Shown here: positions 3,406-11,606 of the stretch, one piece after another
Position numbering within the stretch: position 1 is the stretch's first letter
Layout: each line of letters starts with the position of its first letter
Origin: a virus
Taxonomy: Duplodnaviria > Heunggongvirae > Uroviricota > Caudoviricetes
Direction: 5' to 3' (one strand)
Length of the DNA: 20,812 bases
IMG/VR virus record: IMGVR_UViG_2534681662_000008
Span: 1 to 20,812 of that record
Notes under the pieces: model-generated
Seen by the model: only the letters and a program-made list of their open reading frames with translations
What the model was told of the DNA's origin: nothing
The model's database searches: none
Made by a program: the position numbers and the translations under genes

Positions 3406-3951
3406 ATGAAGTCGAAAGATGAAATTTTTGACGAAGTTCTGGGAAAAGAGGGCGGTTACGTCAATCACCAGGATGATAAAGGCGGACCGACAAAATGGGG
3501 TATTACTGAAAAAGTTGCCCGTGCGCACGGATACCAGGGCGATATGCGTGATCTGACGCGCGGACAGGCGCTGGAAATACTCGAGGCGGACTACTGGTAT
3601 GGACCACGTTTTGACCAGGTGGCAGCGTTATCCCCTGATATTGCCGCAGAGTTGTGTGATACGGGCGTCAACATGGGGCCAGCCGTGGCGTCAAAAATGC
3701 TTCAACGCTGGCTGAACGTTTTCAACCTGCGCGGGAAACTGTATCCGGATATGGATGCAGACGGACGTATCGGGCCGCGTACTCTTAATGCATTACGGGT
3801 ATATCTGAAAAATCGTGGCAGGGATGGAGAGCTGGTAATGCTGACCGCACTGAACTGTACGCAGGGTGACCGCTATCTGGAGCTGGCAGAGAAACGGGAG
3901 GCTAACGAGTCGTTTGTTTACGGCTGGATGAAAGAGCGCGTAGCAGTTTAA
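3406..3951 (+). CDS. Endolysin: GH108-type N-acetylmuramidase domain with a C-terminal peptidoglycan-binding domain
   Basis: ATG 3406 with GAAGG upstream; 181 aa. Contains the GH108 signature EGGYVNHQDDKGGPTKWGIT near the N-terminus, and the C-terminal half fits a PG_binding_3-like domain. Starts 1 nt after the stop of the preceding membrane protein. Confidence 0.85.
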   Translation: MKSKDEIFDEVLGKEGGYVNHQDDKGGPTKWGITEKVARAHGYQGDMRDLTRGQALEILEADYWYGPRFDQVAALSPDIAAELCDTGVNMGPAVASKMLQRWLNVFNLRGKLYPDMDADGRIGPRTLNALRVYLKNRGRDGELVMLTALNCTQGDRYLELAEKREANESFVYGWMKERVAV

Positions 3952-4295: not shown

Positions 4296-4312
4296 GTGGG
4301 GCAGGGGTAAAT

Positions 4313-4447
4313 ATGTCAGATAGCATTATAAAACTGGCGCGAATTCTCTGTGTGGTTGTTGGCCTTTCATTTTCAGCAATGTTGGTTGCCATTTTCATTT
4401 CCACCACCTGGCGAGTATTGAGCTTATCCGGATTGATTGGTGGATAG
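4313..4447 (+). CDS. Very small single-TM protein (44 aa), function unknown
   Basis: ATG 4313, 18 nt after the previous stop. MSDSIIKLARILCVVVGLSFSAMLVAIFISTTWRVLSLSGLIGG. Weak ribosome-binding site. Coding status rests on tight packing and hydrophobic architecture only. Confidence 0.35.
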   Translation: MSDSIIKLARILCVVVGLSFSAMLVAIFISTTWRVLSLSGLIGG

Positions 4448-4451
4448 TGAG

Positions 4452-4634
4452 ATGAAGCGAAAACACTGGACACACAGAATGCCGCGAACGGCGGCGAAAT
4501 GGGCACTGGTAGCGATACTGGTGCCTTTTTTATTGGTGGGATGCGTCAGCCTGGATAAGGCGCGCCAGCTTTTCGATACAGCTTCTCAGGTCTGCAAAAT
4601 TGTCGACGGTGTCCGGCATTGTATGCAGAACTGA
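4452..4634 (+). CDS. Small predicted lipoprotein (lipobox LLVG-C, mature peptide about 30 aa with 3 further Cys)
   Basis: ATG 4452 (alternative ATG 4479), 5 nt after the previous stop. Basic N-region, hydrophobic core WALVAILVPFLL, lipobox LVGC, mature part CVSLDKARQLFDTASQVCKIVDGVRHCMQN. Not proline-rich like lambda Rz1. Confidence 0.5.
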   Translation: MKRKHWTHRMPRTAAKWALVAILVPFLLVGCVSLDKARQLFDTASQVCKIVDGVRHCMQN

Positions 4635-4805
4635 TCGCCTGTAAGAGCAGAATATTTTGCTGAAAAATGAAGGATGCGTCAGCGTCCGGAAAGCATGAAA
4701 TTCTGTGTTTGTGGCTACTCAATAAAATAAATTCTTTCTTTCGCCGCGAATACTCAAATGTTGATCAGTGCCCGGTGCGGTGACGGGCTTCGATATCAGG
4801 AGACG

Positions 4806-5156
4806 ATGATGGAAACAACAGAAAACAAACCGATTGTAATTGGTGCCGCTACTGTCCCGTTTAAGTTTGAGTTGTCTCAACTGGTGGAGATGCGCATCAG
4901 TGATGAATGGGGTGAGGTTAAAGCTCGCGCGCAGTATGCGGATGGCGAAAACCAGTACTTGATCCACTACAAGGCTGCTGATGGTCGCGCCACAACGGCG
5001 TGGTTTGGTGAGTCAATGCTGGGAGCAACAGAAGATGATCGCCATCCGGGCTGTCCGGTATTTGCCGGTATGAAATTACCGGAAGGTGCAGTTGAACTGC
5101 AGCCGGGGGCGGTGTTCGTAATGACAGACATCATTGATGGTAAACCGCAGTATTAG
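4806..5156 (+). CDS. Hypothetical soluble protein (116 aa), no family recognised
   Basis: ATG 4806 or 4809 with AGGAG at 4798-4802; stop TAG 5154-5156. No TM segments; acidic. Lies between the lysis region and cos. Confidence 0.5.
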   Translation: MMETTENKPIVIGAATVPFKFELSQLVEMRISDEWGEVKARAQYADGENQYLIHYKAADGRATTAWFGESMLGATEDDRHPGCPVFAGMKLPEGAVELQPGAVFVMTDIIDGKPQY

Positions 5157-5205
5157 CGTATTGAAATGAATAGTAAGAGTGCTCGCCTGATTCGTGAGTA
5201 ACAGG

Positions 5206-5244
5206 CATTACAGCAGCCCTTCACTCTAAGGGGTTGCTGTAATG
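5206..5244 (+). repeat. Long inverted repeat (hairpin with about 14-bp stem), not followed by a U-tract
   Basis: CATTACAGCAGCCC (5206-5219) pairs with GGGGTTGCTGTAATG (5230-5244): 10 perfect bp plus a G-U pair and 3 G-C pairs. Confidence 0.5.
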
Positions 5245-5597
5245 TGAGAAATAAAAAACCGGTCACAGGGAGCAGCTACACAGAAGCGGCCGGCGAAGAC
5301 CGCCAATACCACCCATGCATTGATGTAACATACTAATGACAATAGCCGCTATTGATGTAAATGCAATGTTATGCATCGACGAAAATAAAAAACCGGCAGG
5401 GGAAATCCATTGAAGATTTGCCGGTGGCAAAAGAGGGCCATGTTTTTAACCTTAGTCGCAGAGTTACGGAGTGCAACTACGAATGCTGCCGGTATATGGC
5501 TGAATGGCGTTTCAATGATGTACGTCATCTTATCTGTAAATGTTAATGACAAACGCTCTCATTTGTGCGGGTCCTTCCGGTGGGGTGGCCTGCCACG

Positions 5598-5609
5598 GGG
5601 CGGCAGCGG
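5598..5609 (+). other. cos site: cosN-like 12-mer GGGCGGCAGCGG, with a cosB-like terminase-binding region downstream (to about 5785)
   Basis: ACG-GGGCGGCAGCGG-CGCGGATTTTCGCTATTTATGAAAATTTTTCGG aligns with the phage lambda left end as I recall it (GGGCGGCGACCT-CGCGGGTTTTCGCTATTTATGAAAATTTTCCGG) and sits immediately upstream of the Nu1 gene, as in lambda. Confidence 0.6.
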
Positions 5610-5785
5610 CGCGGATTTTCGCTATTTATGAAAATTTTTCGGGAAAAAGCGTGTCGGTACTTCTCGTGTATAACTCATTGTTTTTTCATAAATCACATCC
5701 GTAAAAGGTACGACATGAAAGTGCCCGAAAAAGACGTTTTTGAGCACTTCCATGTCGGACCCTGCATTTGATATGGAAATGTTTT

Positions 5786-6334
5786 ATGAAGGTTAACAAA
5801 AAGAAGCTCGCGGAAATTTTCAACGTGGATCCACGAACGATTGAACGCTGGCAGTCTCAGGGGCTCTCTTGTGTCTCTGGTGGTAGTAAGGGGGTTGAAT
5901 CTGTATTTGATACCGCCATGGCAATTCAGTGGTATGCGCAGCGCGAAGCCGATATTGAAAACGAAAAACTCCGCAAAGAGACCGAGGATTTGCGTGCGGC
6001 TGCGGAATCATATTTACAACCCGGCACCATTGACTATGAGCGCTACCGACTCACAAAAGCACAGGCTGATGCACAGGAACTGAAAAATGCCCGCGAAGAA
6101 GGGCTGGTACTGGAAACGGAATTGTTTACCTTCATTCTGCAACGTGTGGCACAGGAGATTTCGGGGATACTTGTACGTGTGCCGCTGACATTACAGCGTA
6201 AATATCCGGATATTTCACCGTCACACCTTGATGTGGTGAAAACTGAAATCGCAAAAGCCTCCAACGTTGCAGCTAAAGCTGGTGAGAACGTAGGCGGGGG
6301 GATTGATGATTTCAGACGCACAGAAGGCAGCTAA
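5786..6334 (+). CDS. nu1: Terminase small subunit (lambda Nu1-like)
   Basis: [27 protein letters not shown]...IENEKLRKE...[23 protein letters not shown] is strongly similar to lambda Nu1. 182 aa; its 3' end overlaps the start of A. Confidence 0.9.
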
Positions 6335-8432: not shown

Positions 8433-10000
8433 ACGGGGAACTGGTGGATATTCATGGGCAGCCTTTACGGCAAAGCATGGGATATTCTGGTGGTGGTTCC
8501 GGGTTCGGTGGGCAAATGGCAGAATGGCTGCCTGCACCGGAAAGTGCCGACGTGGCGCTCTTACCTTCCATTCATCTGGGTAACGCCCGCGCGGATGATC
8601 TGGTCCGTAACAACGGTATTGCATCGAATGCAGTGGAAATTCATAAGGATCATATTGTCGGGCACATGTTTCGTCTGAGTTACCGTCCCAACTGGCGCTG
8701 GCTGGGGATGTCGGAAGCAGATTCACATGCTTTTATTGAAGATGTTGAGGCGGCGTGGATGGAATACTGCGATCCGGTGTTTGGTATGATGGATGTGGAA
8801 GGGCGTCGTTCGTTTACCGAATTCATTCGTGAAGGGGTGGGGGTCCATACGTTTAACGGTGAAATTTTTGTCCAGCCCGTATGGGATGCGGAATCCACGT
8901 CATTATTCCGGACGAAATTCAAAACCATCAGCCCGAAGCGTGTCAGTACACCCGGTTATGGTACCAGCGATCGTTTTATGCGTGCCGGGGTGGAAATAAA
9001 CCGACACGGAAAAGCGCTGGCCTACCATGTTCAGGATGATGACTGGCCCGGCTACGGTGTCAGTAAATGGACACGAATTACGGCAACACTGCCTTCCGGA
9101 CGACCGGGAATGATCCATGTGTTTCAGCCACAGGAAGACGGGCAGACCCGCGGGGCCAACCAGTTTTATTCTGTAATGGAGCGTCTCAAGATGCTCGACA
9201 CACTGCAGGCCACGCAACTGCAGTCGGCGGTGGTTCGCGCCATGTATGCCGCCACGATTGAATCCACACTGGATTCGGAAAAAGCGTTTGAATATATCGC
9301 CGGGGTGGGAGATGGAGGTAAAAATCCCCTGAACACCATCATGAAAGGCTACGCGCGTTATTACGCCACCAATACGGTAAAACTGGGCGGGGTCCGTATT
9401 CCGCATCTTTACCCGGGAGATTCACTGAATCTGCAGACAGCCCAGAATGCGGATAATGGTTTTTCTGAACTGGAAAAGGCGCTGTTACGTTACATTGCTG
9501 CCGGACTGGGTGTGTCGTATGAGCAGCTTTCCCGTGATTATTCACAGGTCAGTTATTCCAGTGCCAGGGCATCCGCCAATGAGTCGTGGCGGTATTTTAT
9601 GGGAAAACGAAAATTTGTGGCCAGTCGCCTGGCGTCACAGATGTTTGCCTGCTGGCTGGAGGAAGCCCTTATTCGTGGTGTGATCCGTCCGCCGAAATCC
9701 CGTTTCTCATTCTGGGAGGCCCGTTCCGGGTGGTGCCGTGCCGAGTGGATTGGTGCCGGTCGCATGGCGATTGATGGCCTTAAGGAAGTGCAGGAAGCGG
9801 TGATGCGCATTGAAGGCGGCCTGAGTACATACGAGAAAGAGCTGGCCCTGATGGGGGATGACTATCAGGAGATTTTCCGCCAGCAGCTACGGGAAACTCA
9901 GGAGCGACAGGCTGCCGGTCTTCCGCGTCCGGTCTGGATAAAGGACGCGTTTCAACAGCAGATCCGACAGACAACGGGAGAAAAAGGCGATGCGCTGTAA
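8429..10000 (+). CDS. B: Portal protein (lambda gpB-like)
   Basis: 523 aa with collinear similarity to lambda B (...FYSVMERLKMLDTLQATQLQSAVVRAMYAATIES...LLRYIAAGLGVSYEQLSRDY...). GTG start at 8429 overlaps the W stop; GGAG lies 8 nt upstream. Confidence 0.9.
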   Translation: MNGELVDIHGQPLRQSMGYSGGGSGFGGQMAEWLPAPESADVALLPSIHLGNARADDLVRNNGIASNAVEIHKDHIVGHMFRLSYRPNWRWLGMSEADSHAFIEDVEAAWMEYCDPVFGMMDVEGRRSFTEFIREGVGVHTFNGEIFVQPVWDAESTSLFRTKFKTISPKRVSTPGYGTSDRFMRAGVEINRHGKALAYHVQDDDWPGYGVSKWTRITATLPSGRPGMIHVFQPQEDGQTRGANQFYSVMERLKMLDTLQATQLQSAVVRAMYAATIESTLDSEKAFEYIAGVGDGGKNPLNTIMKGYARYYATNTVKLGGVRIPHLYPGDSLNLQTAQNADNGFSELEKALLRYIAAGLGVSYEQLSRDYSQVSYSSARASANESWRYFMGKRKFVASRLASQMFACWLEEALIRGVIRPPKSRFSFWEARSGWCRAEWIGAGRMAIDGLKEVQEAVMRIEGGLSTYEKELALMGDDYQEIFRQQLRETQERQAAGLPRPVWIKDAFQQQIRQTTGEKGDAL

Positions 10001-11606
10001 TTTATCACATATTGCCGCGATGGCATTTAATGAGCCGCTTTTACTGGAACCCGCCTATGCGCGGGTTTTCTTTTGCGCACTGGGTAAGGAGATGGGGGCG
10101 GGCAGCCTTGCCGTTCCGCAGCAGGCCGTTCAGCTTGATGCCGATGGTATGCAGCTGGAGGTTACCGATTATATGACTGGTGGTCCGCGTCCGGTAAAGA
10201 GTTACCAGGTGAAAAATGGTATTGCCATTCTGCCGGTGAGCGGCACGCTGGTACATAAAATGGGTACCCTGCAGCCATATTCCGGTATGACCAGTTATGA
10301 CGGTCTGACTGCCCGTCTTAAGTCAGCGGTGAACGACCCGGATGTACGCGGCATTTTACTGGATATCGACAGTCCGGGCGGTCAGGCTGCCGGGGCGTTT
10401 GACTGTGCTGACATGATTTACCGTCTGCGGGAACAGAAGCCCGTGTGGGCGCTGTGTAATGACATGGCCTGTTCAGCCGCCATGTTGCTGGCGGCGGCCT
10501 GTACGCGTCGGCTGGTCACGCAGACGGCAAAAATTGGTTCGATTGGGGTGATGATGGCGCACACCAGTTACGAGAAACAACTGGCACAGGAAGGCGTGGA
10601 TATCACGCTGATTTACTCCGGGCAGCACAAGGTTGACGGCAACAGTATTCAGGCGTTGCCGACAGGTGTGCGTGCGGATTTTCAGCGCCGTATTGATGAT
10701 GCCCGCCGGATGTTTGTCGACAAGGTGGCACTTTATACGGGGCTGAGTTCAGAGGTGGTGATGAATACCGAGGCTGCCGTTTATGACGGTCAGGCAGGCA
10801 TTGATACAGGCCTGGCTGATCAACTGATTAATGCTGCAGATGCCGTTGATGTAATGGTTTCTGCTCTGAACGACTCTGTTACACAGGAGAATACGATGAC
10901 ACCAAAAAATCTCACCGTTGCTGAAGCGGTGTCCCAGGAAAATCAGCGCGTGATGGGGATCCTGAATTGTCAGGAGGCGAAAGGACGCGAAAAACTGGCG
11001 CAGATGCTGGCAGGTCAGCAGGGAATGTCAGTTGAGCAGGCAAAAACATTACTGGCAGCGGCACCGGCAACCGGCACGGCAAGTTCCGGCGATCAAATTA
11101 TTGCGTTGCCGGAAGCAAAAGGACGTGAACAACTGGCACGGACGCTGGCTGAACAGCCGGGAATGACGGTGGAGCAGGCGAAAACGTTACTGGCAGCGGC
11201 ACCGGCAACCGGCACGGCAAGTTCCGGCGATCAAATTATTGCGTTGCCGGAAGCAAAAGGACGTGAACAACTGGCACGGACGCTGGCTGAACAGCCGGGA
11301 ATGACGGTGGAGCAGGCGAAAACGTTACTGGCAGCGGCACCGGCAACCGGCACGGCAAGTTCCGGCGATCAAATTATTGCGTTGCCGGAAGCAAAAGGAC
11401 GCGAAAAACTGGCACAGGCGCTGGCTGAACAACCGGGAATGACAGTGGAGCAGGCGAAAACGCTGCTGGCAGCTGCGCCATCAGTATCGCAACCGTCACA
11501 GGTAACACTTTTTGAGCGCTTCATGGCACAGCATGCCGCCAGTGCCGTTTCCGGTGGCGGAACTGCCGGGAACGGGGAAAAAGAACTGCTGATGAGTATG
11601 CCGTAA
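9990..11606 (+). CDS. C: Head maturation protease / minor capsid protein (lambda gpC-like, S49 peptidase family) with an expanded C-terminal scaffold (Nu3-like) region
   Basis: 538 aa. N-terminus MAFNEPLLLEPAYARVFFCAL and the core ...ILPVSGTLVHKMGTLQPYSGMTSYDG...GILLDIDSPGGQAAGAFDCADMIYRLRE...TGSIGVMMAH match lambda C. The C-terminal third carries 46-aa tandem repeats. Confidence 0.9.
   Translation: MRCNLSHIAAMAFNEPLLLEPAYARVFFCALGKEMGAGSLAVPQQAVQLDADGMQLEVTDYMTGGPRPVKSYQVKNGIAILPVSGTLVHKMGTLQPYSGMTSYDGLTARLKSAVNDPDVRGILLDIDSPGGQAAGAFDCADMIYRLREQKPVWALCNDMACSAAMLLAAACTRRLVTQTAKIGSIGVMMAHTSYEKQLAQEGVDITLIYSGQHKVDGNSIQALPTGVRADFQRRIDDARRMFVDKVALYTGLSSEVVMNTEAAVYDGQAGIDTGLADQLINAADAVDVMVSALNDSVTQENTMTPKNLTVAEAVSQENQRVMGILNCQEAKGREKLAQMLAGQQGMSVEQAKTLLAAAPATGTASSGDQIIALPEAKGREQLARTLAEQPGMTVEQAKTLLAAAPATGTASSGDQIIALPEAKGREQLARTLAEQPGMTVEQAKTLLAAAPATGTASSGDQIIALPEAKGREKLAQALAEQPGMTVEQAKTLLAAAPSVSQPSQVTLFERFMAQHAASAVSGGGTAGNGEKELLMSMP
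10896..11606 (+). CDS. nu3: Candidate internal in-frame scaffolding protein (lambda Nu3-like) translated from within C
   Basis: In-frame ATG at 10896 preceded by AGGAG (10885-10889). In lambda, Nu3 is the in-frame C-terminal part of C. ...ENQRVMGILNCQEAKGRE... matches the lambda Nu3 motif ENSRIMGILNCEEAHGRE (recalled). Confidence 0.4.
   Translation: MTPKNLTVAEAVSQENQRVMGILNCQEAKGREKLAQMLAGQQGMSVEQAKTLLAAAPATGTASSGDQIIALPEAKGREQLARTLAEQPGMTVEQAKTLLAAAPATGTASSGDQIIALPEAKGREQLARTLAEQPGMTVEQAKTLLAAAPATGTASSGDQIIALPEAKGREKLAQALAEQPGMTVEQAKTLLAAAPSVSQPSQVTLFERFMAQHAASAVSGGGTAGNGEKELLMSMP
10973..11472 (+). repeat. Tandem direct repeat array, 138-bp unit, about 3.6 copies (in-frame 46-aa repeat in C/Nu3)
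   Basis: Copies at 11111-11248 and 11249-11386 are identical. The copy at 10973-11110 is diverged in its first half. A partial diverged copy starts at 11387. Protein unit: EAKGREQLARTLAEQPGMTVEQAKTLLAAAPATGTASSGDQIIALP. Confidence 0.85.

Follow-up and report, generated by a model that had tools for sequence, protein, structure and literature searches.

A conserved intercistronic stem-loop follows accessory genes, among them a probable HspQ-like gene, in temperate phages of the Enterobacterales

The window analyzed here is a stretch of 20,812 nucleotides (nt) from a virus of the Caudoviricetes (IMG/VR record IMGVR_UViG_2534681662_000008, positions 1 to 20,812), and it is the late region of a lambda-like prophage. 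Between its lysis genes and its cohesive-end site (cos) lie a small open reading frame (ORF; positions 4806 to 5156) and, downstream of it, a hairpin (5205 to 5245). Many temperate phages of the Enterobacterales carry this hairpin, a conserved stem-loop of about 38 nt, after genes at this junction. It is a widespread repeated element that stands behind dozens of unrelated genes and is apparently undescribed. The explanation that we favor, with a probability of about one-half, is that the ORF and hairpin together form one accessory-gene cassette at the lysis-packaging junction, whose mRNA stem-loop doubles as a recombination joint. The ORF and hairpin had been singled out in an initial annotation made from the sequence alone; its observation is partly confirmed and its interpretation partly supported.

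The arms of the hairpin, as placed by a repeat finder, span 5206 to 5219 and 5231 to 5244 (14 nt each). They are complementary as DNA at 13 of 14 positions, with one G:T; the repeat is real and folds strongly but is not the perfect hairpin that had been claimed. As plus-strand RNA, the hairpin forms 17 base pairs (bp), including G-U pairs (5205 to 5221 with 5229 to 5245), around a 7-nt loop, at -26.8 kcal/mol (z = -5.7), a stability attained by 0 of 200 shuffled sequences; the minus strand folds more weakly (-20.1 kcal/mol). The outer arms (GCAUUA and UAAUGU) flank a G+C-rich inner stem. A covariance model detects one copy in the window, scoring 34.4 bits on the plus strand and 14.3 bits on the minus strand. 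Two further sites were rejected. A second, decayed hairpin at 4640 to 4670, the left edge of the indel described below, looked possible by eye, but the covariance model is blank there to an E value of 10, and a match at 3790 to 3840, inside the endolysin gene, is weak (E = 0.11) and was treated as chance. Rfam returned nothing at 5205 to 5245, at its gathering threshold or at E values of up to 5. The stem is followed by UGAGAAAUAAAAAA, confirming the earlier statement that no U-tract is present, and a terminator scan of the window did not call the site.

Copies of the hairpin in other phages were retrieved from IMG/VR by a pattern that specifies only the outer arms (GCATTACAG-N14-30-CGATAATG), which is matched by at least 120 viral contigs. 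Among the 121 matches listed, 110 have folds more stable than -12 kcal/mol, and just 4 come after a gene of the same type as the window ORF (PHROG 1935). The genes upstream of the hairpins belong to at least 35 unrelated families and the ORFs downstream to at least 40 clusters, which were characterized by eye from their sequences. Among the upstream genes are spanins, a Rha/antirepressor-type protein (Rha family in the phi80 annotation), a tail protein, and numerous small unknowns; downstream, the largest cluster resembles the small terminase and another an HNH endonuclease, and one gene is P2 gpR by Pfam. Across 88 loci related to that of the window, the hairpin lies 0 to 6 nt past the stop codon of both long and short forms of the gene, a spacing seen in five genera. 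Phages of Edwardsiella, Yersinia, Phytobacter, and Pseudocitrobacter and the P2-like phages of Enterobacter share its outer arms but not its inner stems. GenBank phage records carry the hairpin unannotated, and we found no description of it in the literature searched by motif sequence and topic, nor an Rfam family.

Covariation within these copies indicates that the family is almost certainly real and that its structure is under selection. In 43 distinct 38-mers, whose sequence between the arms was left free by the search pattern, 99.1% of cells pair, compared with 34 to 55% in slid controls, and six pairs change on both sides (68 cells). In the usual architecture, a 2x2 loop separates a lower stem of 5 to 6 bp from an upper stem of 10 bp. 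Most copies have a CA/GA mismatch as this loop. It has been closed in the window lineage by a change of GA to TG, which yields C-G and A-U pairs, and in another lineage by a change of CA to TC; pairing at this position is thus tolerated. At the inner-stem positions of 65 distinct matches, counted without an energy filter, there are 438 Watson-Crick, 94 G-U, and 4 A-C combinations, and the large excess of G-U over A-C points to a structure of the sense strand, probably of RNA. No such asymmetry is expected of a structure required on both strands or solely in duplex DNA.

The placement of the copies follows the same strand. An ORF of at least 50 amino acids (aa) ends within 20 nt of the hairpin on the same strand in 70 of 103 copies and on the other strand in 26. 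In most contexts, the gap from stop codon to stem is 0 to 4 nt, and the next start codon most commonly lies 19 to 22 nt beyond the stem. A T-rich tail occurs in only 10 of 155 distinct contexts, which, together with the missing U-tract in the window, bears out the view that the hairpin is not an intrinsic terminator. The hairpin is therefore specific to the sense strand and is neither a canonical terminator nor a duplex operator. It behaves like a structured RNA-type element, and it is somewhat more likely than not to act on the sense strand as RNA; a specific role in mRNA stability, processing, or insulation is less likely than not.

Individual phage genomes contain few copies. The covariance model finds 1, 3 (within 1 kb), and 1 in three complete phage genomes, in each case at a single site or cluster; in the one annotated genome of the three, the copy stands downstream of the lysis genes and immediately ahead of the large-terminase region. 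The lambdoid prophage of K-12 laboratory strains, which we take to be phi80 derived because TOP10 and EPI300 match too, has one copy after the rha-like gene that follows its lysis cassette, and the hairpin is present both in phi80-derived prophages and in the enterotoxigenic Escherichia coli (ETEC) strain H10407.

Features of the window that bear on the cassette are as follows.

4437 to 4634, plus strand: lipoprotein-like gene with lipobox LVGC, the last lysis-region gene ahead of the cassette (PHROG 7528, E = 4.9e-37)
4640 to 4805, plus strand: leader inherited with the ORF, the left part of a 565-bp indel relative to locus L163
4798 to 4802, plus strand: Shine-Dalgarno sequence AGGAG, read from the sequence
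4809 to 5156, plus strand: ORF of 115 aa (116 aa from 4806), PHROG 1935, truncated allele, core at about aa 17 to 96
5154 to 5156, plus strand: premature amber stop, TCG to TAG (C5155A), from alignment with H10407, L017, and L046
5157 to 5201, plus strand: remnant of the last 14 codons (RIEMNSKSARLIRE) and the ancestral TAA at 5199 to 5201
5205 to 5245, plus strand: conserved cassette-terminal stem-loop, from folding, covariance model, and family comparison
5598 to 5609, plus strand: cosN, where the lambda-type cohesive end starts; cosB and the small terminase gene come next

Hairpin copies mark mosaic boundaries. Just 3' of the ORF's hairpin, similarity between loci breaks off at once and at least 8 different continuations follow, and for the stem variant AGCCAC..., as read from the listed matches, the downstream sequence is constant and the upstream gene changes, such that exchange seems to occur on both sides of the hairpin. 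In L163, the same lipoprotein gene is joined straight to the hairpin, and window positions 4640 to 5204 (leader and ORF) thus constitute a 565-bp indel that ends exactly at the hairpin, in keeping with the proposal that the interval between lysis and packaging genes is a variable accessory slot. Hairpin-gene-hairpin arrays, all in a single orientation, are present in L132, L119, L111, L150, and L125. Their common unit is an 81-aa gene (MSEIT..EQIRL.IIKKVNYDTAAAKLAIDWVGDS…) with a hairpin on each side, which is the clearest such cassette. In four other IMG/VR loci (L110, L146, L162, and L205), unrelated N-terminal sequences are joined, just ahead of the hairpin, to the optional C-terminal module of the ORF's protein family (…IDGKPQY-x-RIEM…ARLIRE) or to the tail of its short form (…PVFAGMKLPEGAVVTE). 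This arrangement suggests that recombination takes place not in the hairpin alone but also within the 3' end of the gene.

A packaging signal tied to cos was considered and rejected. In P2-like phages, the hairpin lies between a lysis gene and tail gene R, an interval from which the cos of P2-type genomes is far removed, and the hairpin also occurs in a phage with a PBSX-family (headful-type) large terminase. Lambda (J02459) positions 1 to 88 align with window positions 5598 to 5685, placing lambda base 1 at 5598 and cosN therefore 353 nt downstream of the hairpin; the initial annotation had the ORF and hairpin adjacent to cos, and they are near it but not immediately adjacent.

The ORF itself is as first described, an acidic reading frame whose translation from 4806 gives 116 aa followed by TAG (pI 4.6; 18 D+E versus 10 K+R). 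Its ribosome-binding site is good, with AGGAG ending 6 nt before the second ATG, at 4809, and this ATG is the likelier start, given both its 6-nt spacer and the RefSeq start of the homologue in ETEC H10407. That homologue is 130 aa long, and the extra length is C terminal, not N terminal. A single C-to-A change at 5155 has converted a serine codon (TCG) to TAG in the window, leaving intact the 14 codons and TAA beyond it, which are identical in ETEC H10407 and L017 and differ at two bases in L046. The gap of about 50 nt that was thought to separate the ORF from the hairpin (5157 to 5204) is therefore not a spacer but dead coding sequence of a truncated reading frame, and the hairpin begins 3 nt past the ancestral stop. 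Eight IMG/VR loci end at the same amber point, the TAG itself having been read in L009, and the 25 sequences of cluster P0001, at 116 aa the same length as the window allele, may share the truncation. The truncation removes the last 14 codons from the window allele but spares the conserved core, and the dN/dS ratios (nonsynonymous to synonymous substitution rates) of the ORF to seven homologues, 0.13 to 0.30, indicate purifying selection.

In every locus read with annotation or gene calls, except the short contig L095, the gene follows or adjoins lysis genes in the late operon. Lambdoid phages have it ahead of cos and the lambda-type terminase genes, and in the Shiga-toxin phage phiP27 it precedes an HNH gene and cos; the ORF region of phiP27 is 95.6% identical to the window, and the packaging module 3' of the ORF differs. 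In P2-like Enterobacter prophages, the start codon of the gene overlaps the stop codon of a DUF2514 lysis gene and tail gene R follows, and in a Serratia P2-like phage the gene likewise adjoins the lysis genes of the late operon. In Salmonella, it comes after an Rz-type gene. Among alignable loci that carry the ORF, the leader is 85 to 99% (mostly at least 90%) identical over its full or partial length. Across 4640 to 5700, the window is most similar (96% identity) to prophages carried by ETEC strains, that of H10407 among them. A scan of 4300 to 6000 found no sigma-70-like promoter on the plus strand, and in the absence of such a promoter upstream, the ORF appears to be a late gene that travels with the lysis module and not a self-transcribed moron. 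A promoter within the 3' arm of the hairpin (GATAAT) was rejected, as the family does not conserve a TG extension and, by eye, a -35 element is missing at any workable distance.

The encoded protein had been reported to have no recognizable family, but it matches PHROG 1935 with an E value of 1.4e-67 (residues 2 to 116 against profile positions 1 to 116, the full length). PHROG 1935 is a known, uncharacterized phage family, and the window ORF is an ordinary member of it, here truncated. Its 107 homologues occur in Escherichia, Salmonella, Yersinia, Edwardsiella, Enterobacter, and Klebsiella. Many are only 82 to 98 aa long and end after LPEGAVVE, which delimits a core at about residues 17 to 96 and makes the C-terminal extension optional. 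In a profile search of 1.8 billion representative proteins, 720 clusters match a core of about 57 aa, many of them core-only proteins of about 60 aa. Four sequences of 223 to 226 aa (P0108, P0111, P0250, and P0251) contain the core domain twice in tandem.

The remote-homology and structure searches proposed in the initial annotation yielded a probable relationship to HspQ. With an alignment of 91 sequences, which was needed because a shallow one of 36 gave a predicted local distance difference test (pLDDT) score of 48.7, AlphaFold predicts a small, SH3-like beta-barrel (pLDDT 87.8; about 97 in the core), and this predicted fold agrees with the solved HspQ structure (PDB 5ycq). Alignment of the family with a profile of HspQ orthologues by hhalign gives a probability of 90.1% (E = 1.6e-6; 77 columns), and alignment with a single HspQ sequence, checked against 5ycq, gives 64.9%. 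The profile alignment spans the barrel, continues into a shared D-x-HP-x-x-P segment, and stops at HspQ residue 88, beyond which the phage protein has an unrelated PVFAGMKLPEGAV tail. HspQ has an insertion of about 15 residues and a C-terminal tail bearing K96, both of which are absent from the phage protein (the tail by profile alignment). The gathering score of PF08755 (YccV-like) is not reached: the window protein has no match, and 1 of 91 family members matches, only at E = 0.11. Searches of Pfam, NCBIfam, PDB sequences, and PADLOC returned no match to the window protein. On these grounds, we consider the phage protein a probable remote, minimal HspQ/YccV-like protein, one that differs from HspQ in scoring below the Pfam threshold and in being phage encoded beside lysis genes.

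HspQ is a host protein that modulates the AAA+ proteases Lon and ClpS-ClpAP. Its C-terminal tail with K96 governs the interaction with Lon, and acetylation of K96 turns HspQ from an activator and substrate of Lon into an inhibitor of ClpS (PMC6719616). By analogy, the phage protein could modulate a host AAA+ protease, which is a lead only and on present evidence an unlikely one, and the notion that it might tune such a protease late in infection is speculative.

The hairpin is classified with intercistronic phage stem-loops and repeat elements, several of which it resembles in part. One parallel is with the promoter-early stem-loops (PeSLs) of T4-type phages, between copies of which recombination shuffles modules (Arbiol et al. 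2010, PMC2839356). PeSLs and the present hairpin are both short, conserved, intergenic stem-loops that flank small nonessential or accessory ORFs and coincide with the boundaries of insertions, deletions, and replacements, PeSLs doing so in a hyperplastic genome region (PMC2839356). The location of hairpin copies on either side of accessory ORFs at such boundaries is evident in the arrays, the L163 indel, and the at least 8 continuations described above. In contrast, PeSLs include a strong sigma-70-like promoter and have stem-loops that are effective terminators (PMC2839356), whereas no promoter was found for the hairpin, with no promoter-like site on the plus strand of 4300 to 6000 that could be joined to the stem-loop, and its U-tract is usually absent. 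The carriers also differ, being T4-type phages in one case and temperate lambdoid, P2-like, and HK97-like phages in the other, where copies occur solely at the lysis-packaging junction.

Like repetitive extragenic palindromic (REP) elements, the hairpins are imperfect palindromes of about 35 to 40 nt that lie just past stop codons inside operons and have compensatory changes in their stems. REP elements shield the upstream mRNA from 3' exonucleases and affect translation when within about 15 nt of the stop codon. They begin with a 5' GTAG, are associated with a RAYT (REP-associated tyrosine transposase), and number tens to hundreds of copies per genome; the hairpin has neither the GTAG nor the transposase, its arms being GCATTACAG and CGATAATG with no transposase seen by eye among the listed neighbors, and occurs in 1 to 3 copies per phage, at one genomic junction. 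The RYYYAAC and GTTRRRY boxes of attC sites are absent from the hairpin consensus, and no integrase adjoins the arrays. With these diagnostic boxes lacking, membership in either the attC or REP class was rejected. Of the two hallmarks of intrinsic terminators, the hairpin has the G+C-rich stem (17 bp, -26.8 kcal/mol) and lacks the U-rich tract. RNase III hairpins of the T7 R1.1 type are similarly intercistronic, located on the sense strand, and built of a lower stem and, beyond a small internal loop, an upper stem of about 10 bp, with no U-tract; the comparison is one of architecture, and the helix of the hairpin is just 17 to 19 bp, with the internal loop closed in the window copy.

If the ORF and hairpin are a cassette of the kind that we favor, the hairpin would be a structural element between cistrons of the polycistronic late mRNA. 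There, it could serve as a barrier to 3' exonucleases or as a processing point, setting the stability or fate of the upstream cistron, and could insulate neighboring cistrons from one another. The conserved arms would also offer a common joint for recombination, with 38 bp of shared sequence allowing ordinary recombination to swap, insert, or lose cassettes. Several points weigh against this explanation. A G-T wobble folds in single-stranded DNA too, so that strand asymmetry alone is compatible with a DNA-hairpin mechanism. A barrier that depended on structure only has no need of invariant outer arms, and the invariance of the A/U-rich base of the stem implies a sequence-specific partner, which keeps recombination through single-stranded DNA in contention. 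Moreover, some members of the gene family lack such a hairpin: in the Salmonella members, the next gene overlaps the stop codon and there is no such hairpin, and the Serratia member carries a different, G+C-rich one.

The alternative closest to these objections is that the hairpin is a single-stranded-DNA recombination site, either attC-like or IS200/REP-like (HUH), at which a dedicated enzyme moves cassettes and the gene is mere cargo. Such a site would account for the hairpin-gene-hairpin arrays, the invariant outer arms around a hypervariable and covarying mid-stem, the retention of the 2x2 mismatch in most copies, and the mosaic junctions and indels that stop exactly at the hairpin; strand asymmetry is expected of a folded DNA strand as well. 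However, genes for recombinases or for HUH or Y1 transposases are not a consistent feature of the neighborhood, in which spanin, terminase, HNH, and tail genes are found, and neither the GTTRRRY/RYYYAAC boxes nor a REP-type GTAG is present. The stem, at about 17 bp, is shorter than that of attC by our estimate, the tight spacing of 0 to 4 nt from stop codons suggests a context of mRNA or translation, and ordinary homologous recombination across 38-bp repeats explains the same mosaicism. We therefore regard a dedicated recombination site as improbable. To the same degree improbable is a cassette system of the phages' own, in which small accessory genes would be stacked between the lysis and packaging modules, each with a terminal hairpin whose invariant base would be read by a factor that both processes late mRNA and exchanges cassettes among unrelated phage types, and in which a minimal HspQ mimic reprogramming Lon or ClpS-ClpAP late in infection would be a recurrent cargo. 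Such a system would be the phage counterpart of integron cassettes or T4 PeSLs.

Slightly less probable still is that the hairpin is a weak terminator closing a moron, which would halt unmodified host RNA polymerase in lysogens and let Q-modified polymerase pass when the phage grows lytically. A G+C-rich stem straight after a stop codon is the classic moron layout, and a few copies do precede T-runs (TTTTT in P2-like loci of Enterobacter, for instance, and TTTTTGGTTTTT in L064 and L081). Yet T-rich tails are confined to the 10 contexts noted above, and the window is not among them; in addition, no promoter was found upstream of the ORF, and the overlap of the P2-like start codon with a lysis gene shows that the gene is not an independent transcription unit. 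P2-like late operons, to our knowledge, function without antitermination, and essential tail genes lie just downstream of the hairpin in them. Nor do terminators normally preserve invariant A/U-rich basal arms across genera.

With respect to the protein, the initial annotation suggested an anti-defense role; on such a reading, the protein would have no part in protease control and its likeness to HspQ would be just a generic SH3-like fold. The protein is indeed small, acidic, and located in an accessory slot, its top viral structural matches are throughout uncharacterized small phage proteins, and SH3-like barrels are very common. But the gene is late, cotranscribed, and in one lineage translationally coupled with lysis genes, a timing poorly suited to countering early-acting defenses, and the HspQ profile similarity (90% probability) reaches past the barrel into the HP-x-x-P motif. 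PADLOC, a library that covers defense and not anti-defense proteins and is thus weak evidence here, gave no match. The suggestion is not supported by these results, and we consider it quite unlikely. Finally, a double-stranded DNA operator for a dimeric protein, the protein-binding palindrome also offered initially, can be dismissed: although the outer half-sites, CATTACAG and C(G/T)(A/G)TAATG, show conservation and approximate symmetry, the distance between arms ranges from 14 to 30 nt, CA faces GA in most copies so that the arms fall short of true complementarity, the inner stem covaries in a manner not needed for duplex binding, and the ratio of G-U to A-C (94 to 4) means that one strand alone folds well.

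The remainder of the window has the gene order of a lambdoid late region, comprising isrK and C4 RNAs, an anti-repressor gene, two tRNAs, holins, an endolysin, and small lysis-region genes, and onward through cos to the small and large terminase, portal, and head protease genes. The Rfam matches to isrK (708 to 784) and the C4 antisense RNA (812 to 896) lie directly 5' of the anti-repressor gene (PHROG 2379; 931 to 1536), and this set is a P1/P7-type c4-ant immunity arrangement within a lambdoid prophage. The phage-borne tRNA-Thr (UGU) and tRNA-Gly (UCC) genes, at 1834 to 1987 and upstream of the lysis genes, are replaced by tRNA-Ile and tRNA-Arg at the same position in the H10407 and phiP27 loci. 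A terminator-like hairpin with a T-run at 4501 to 4526, inside the part of the lipoprotein gene (4437 to 4634) that encodes the signal peptide, is probably a by-product of hydrophobic coding sequence.

Between the hairpin and cosN, the 350 nt from 5245 to 5597 match no function-annotated PHROG, and a plus-strand ORF at 5410 to 5631 has a sole, weak match to a family of unknown function (phrog_17397, E = 6e-7). This stretch is 85 to 100% (mostly 97 to 100%) conserved among the relatives that align there, and the corresponding part of phiSTEC1575-Stx2k is annotated with three hypothetical genes. It contains two direct copies of AAATAAAAAACCGG, at about 5250 and 5384, each of which on the minus strand follows a CCGG...CCGG stem and has the look of a weak terminator. 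Between cosB and the start of the small terminase gene is an inverted repeat at 5707 to 5761 (25 nt, 84% complementary, 5-nt spacer), which gave spurious plant-microRNA matches in Rfam. Farther downstream, the 538-aa head protease/scaffold gene (9990 to 11606) contains a tandem repeat at 10973 to 11473, with 3.6 copies of a 138-nt unit (46 codons, in frame) that are 93% identical, and the PHROG matches there consist of 4 to 5 repeated stretches.

For annotation, these results imply that the window ORF should be flagged as a nonsense-truncated allele and that the hairpin can serve as a searchable marker for accessory-gene insertion points in lambdoid, HK97-like, and P2-like prophages. The prophage hosts concerned are Escherichia, Klebsiella, Enterobacter, Citrobacter, Yersinia, and Edwardsiella, and the toxin-converting phiP27 and cdtI phages are included. 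If the hairpin acts in RNA, it would be an unannotated regulatory element of the late operon, and if it acts in recombination, it would put a physical element behind the "linker" sequences that have long been invoked to account for phage mosaicism. The relationship to HspQ, if true, would extend the YccV/HspQ fold to phages and make the gene family a candidate for viral control of host AAA+ proteases.

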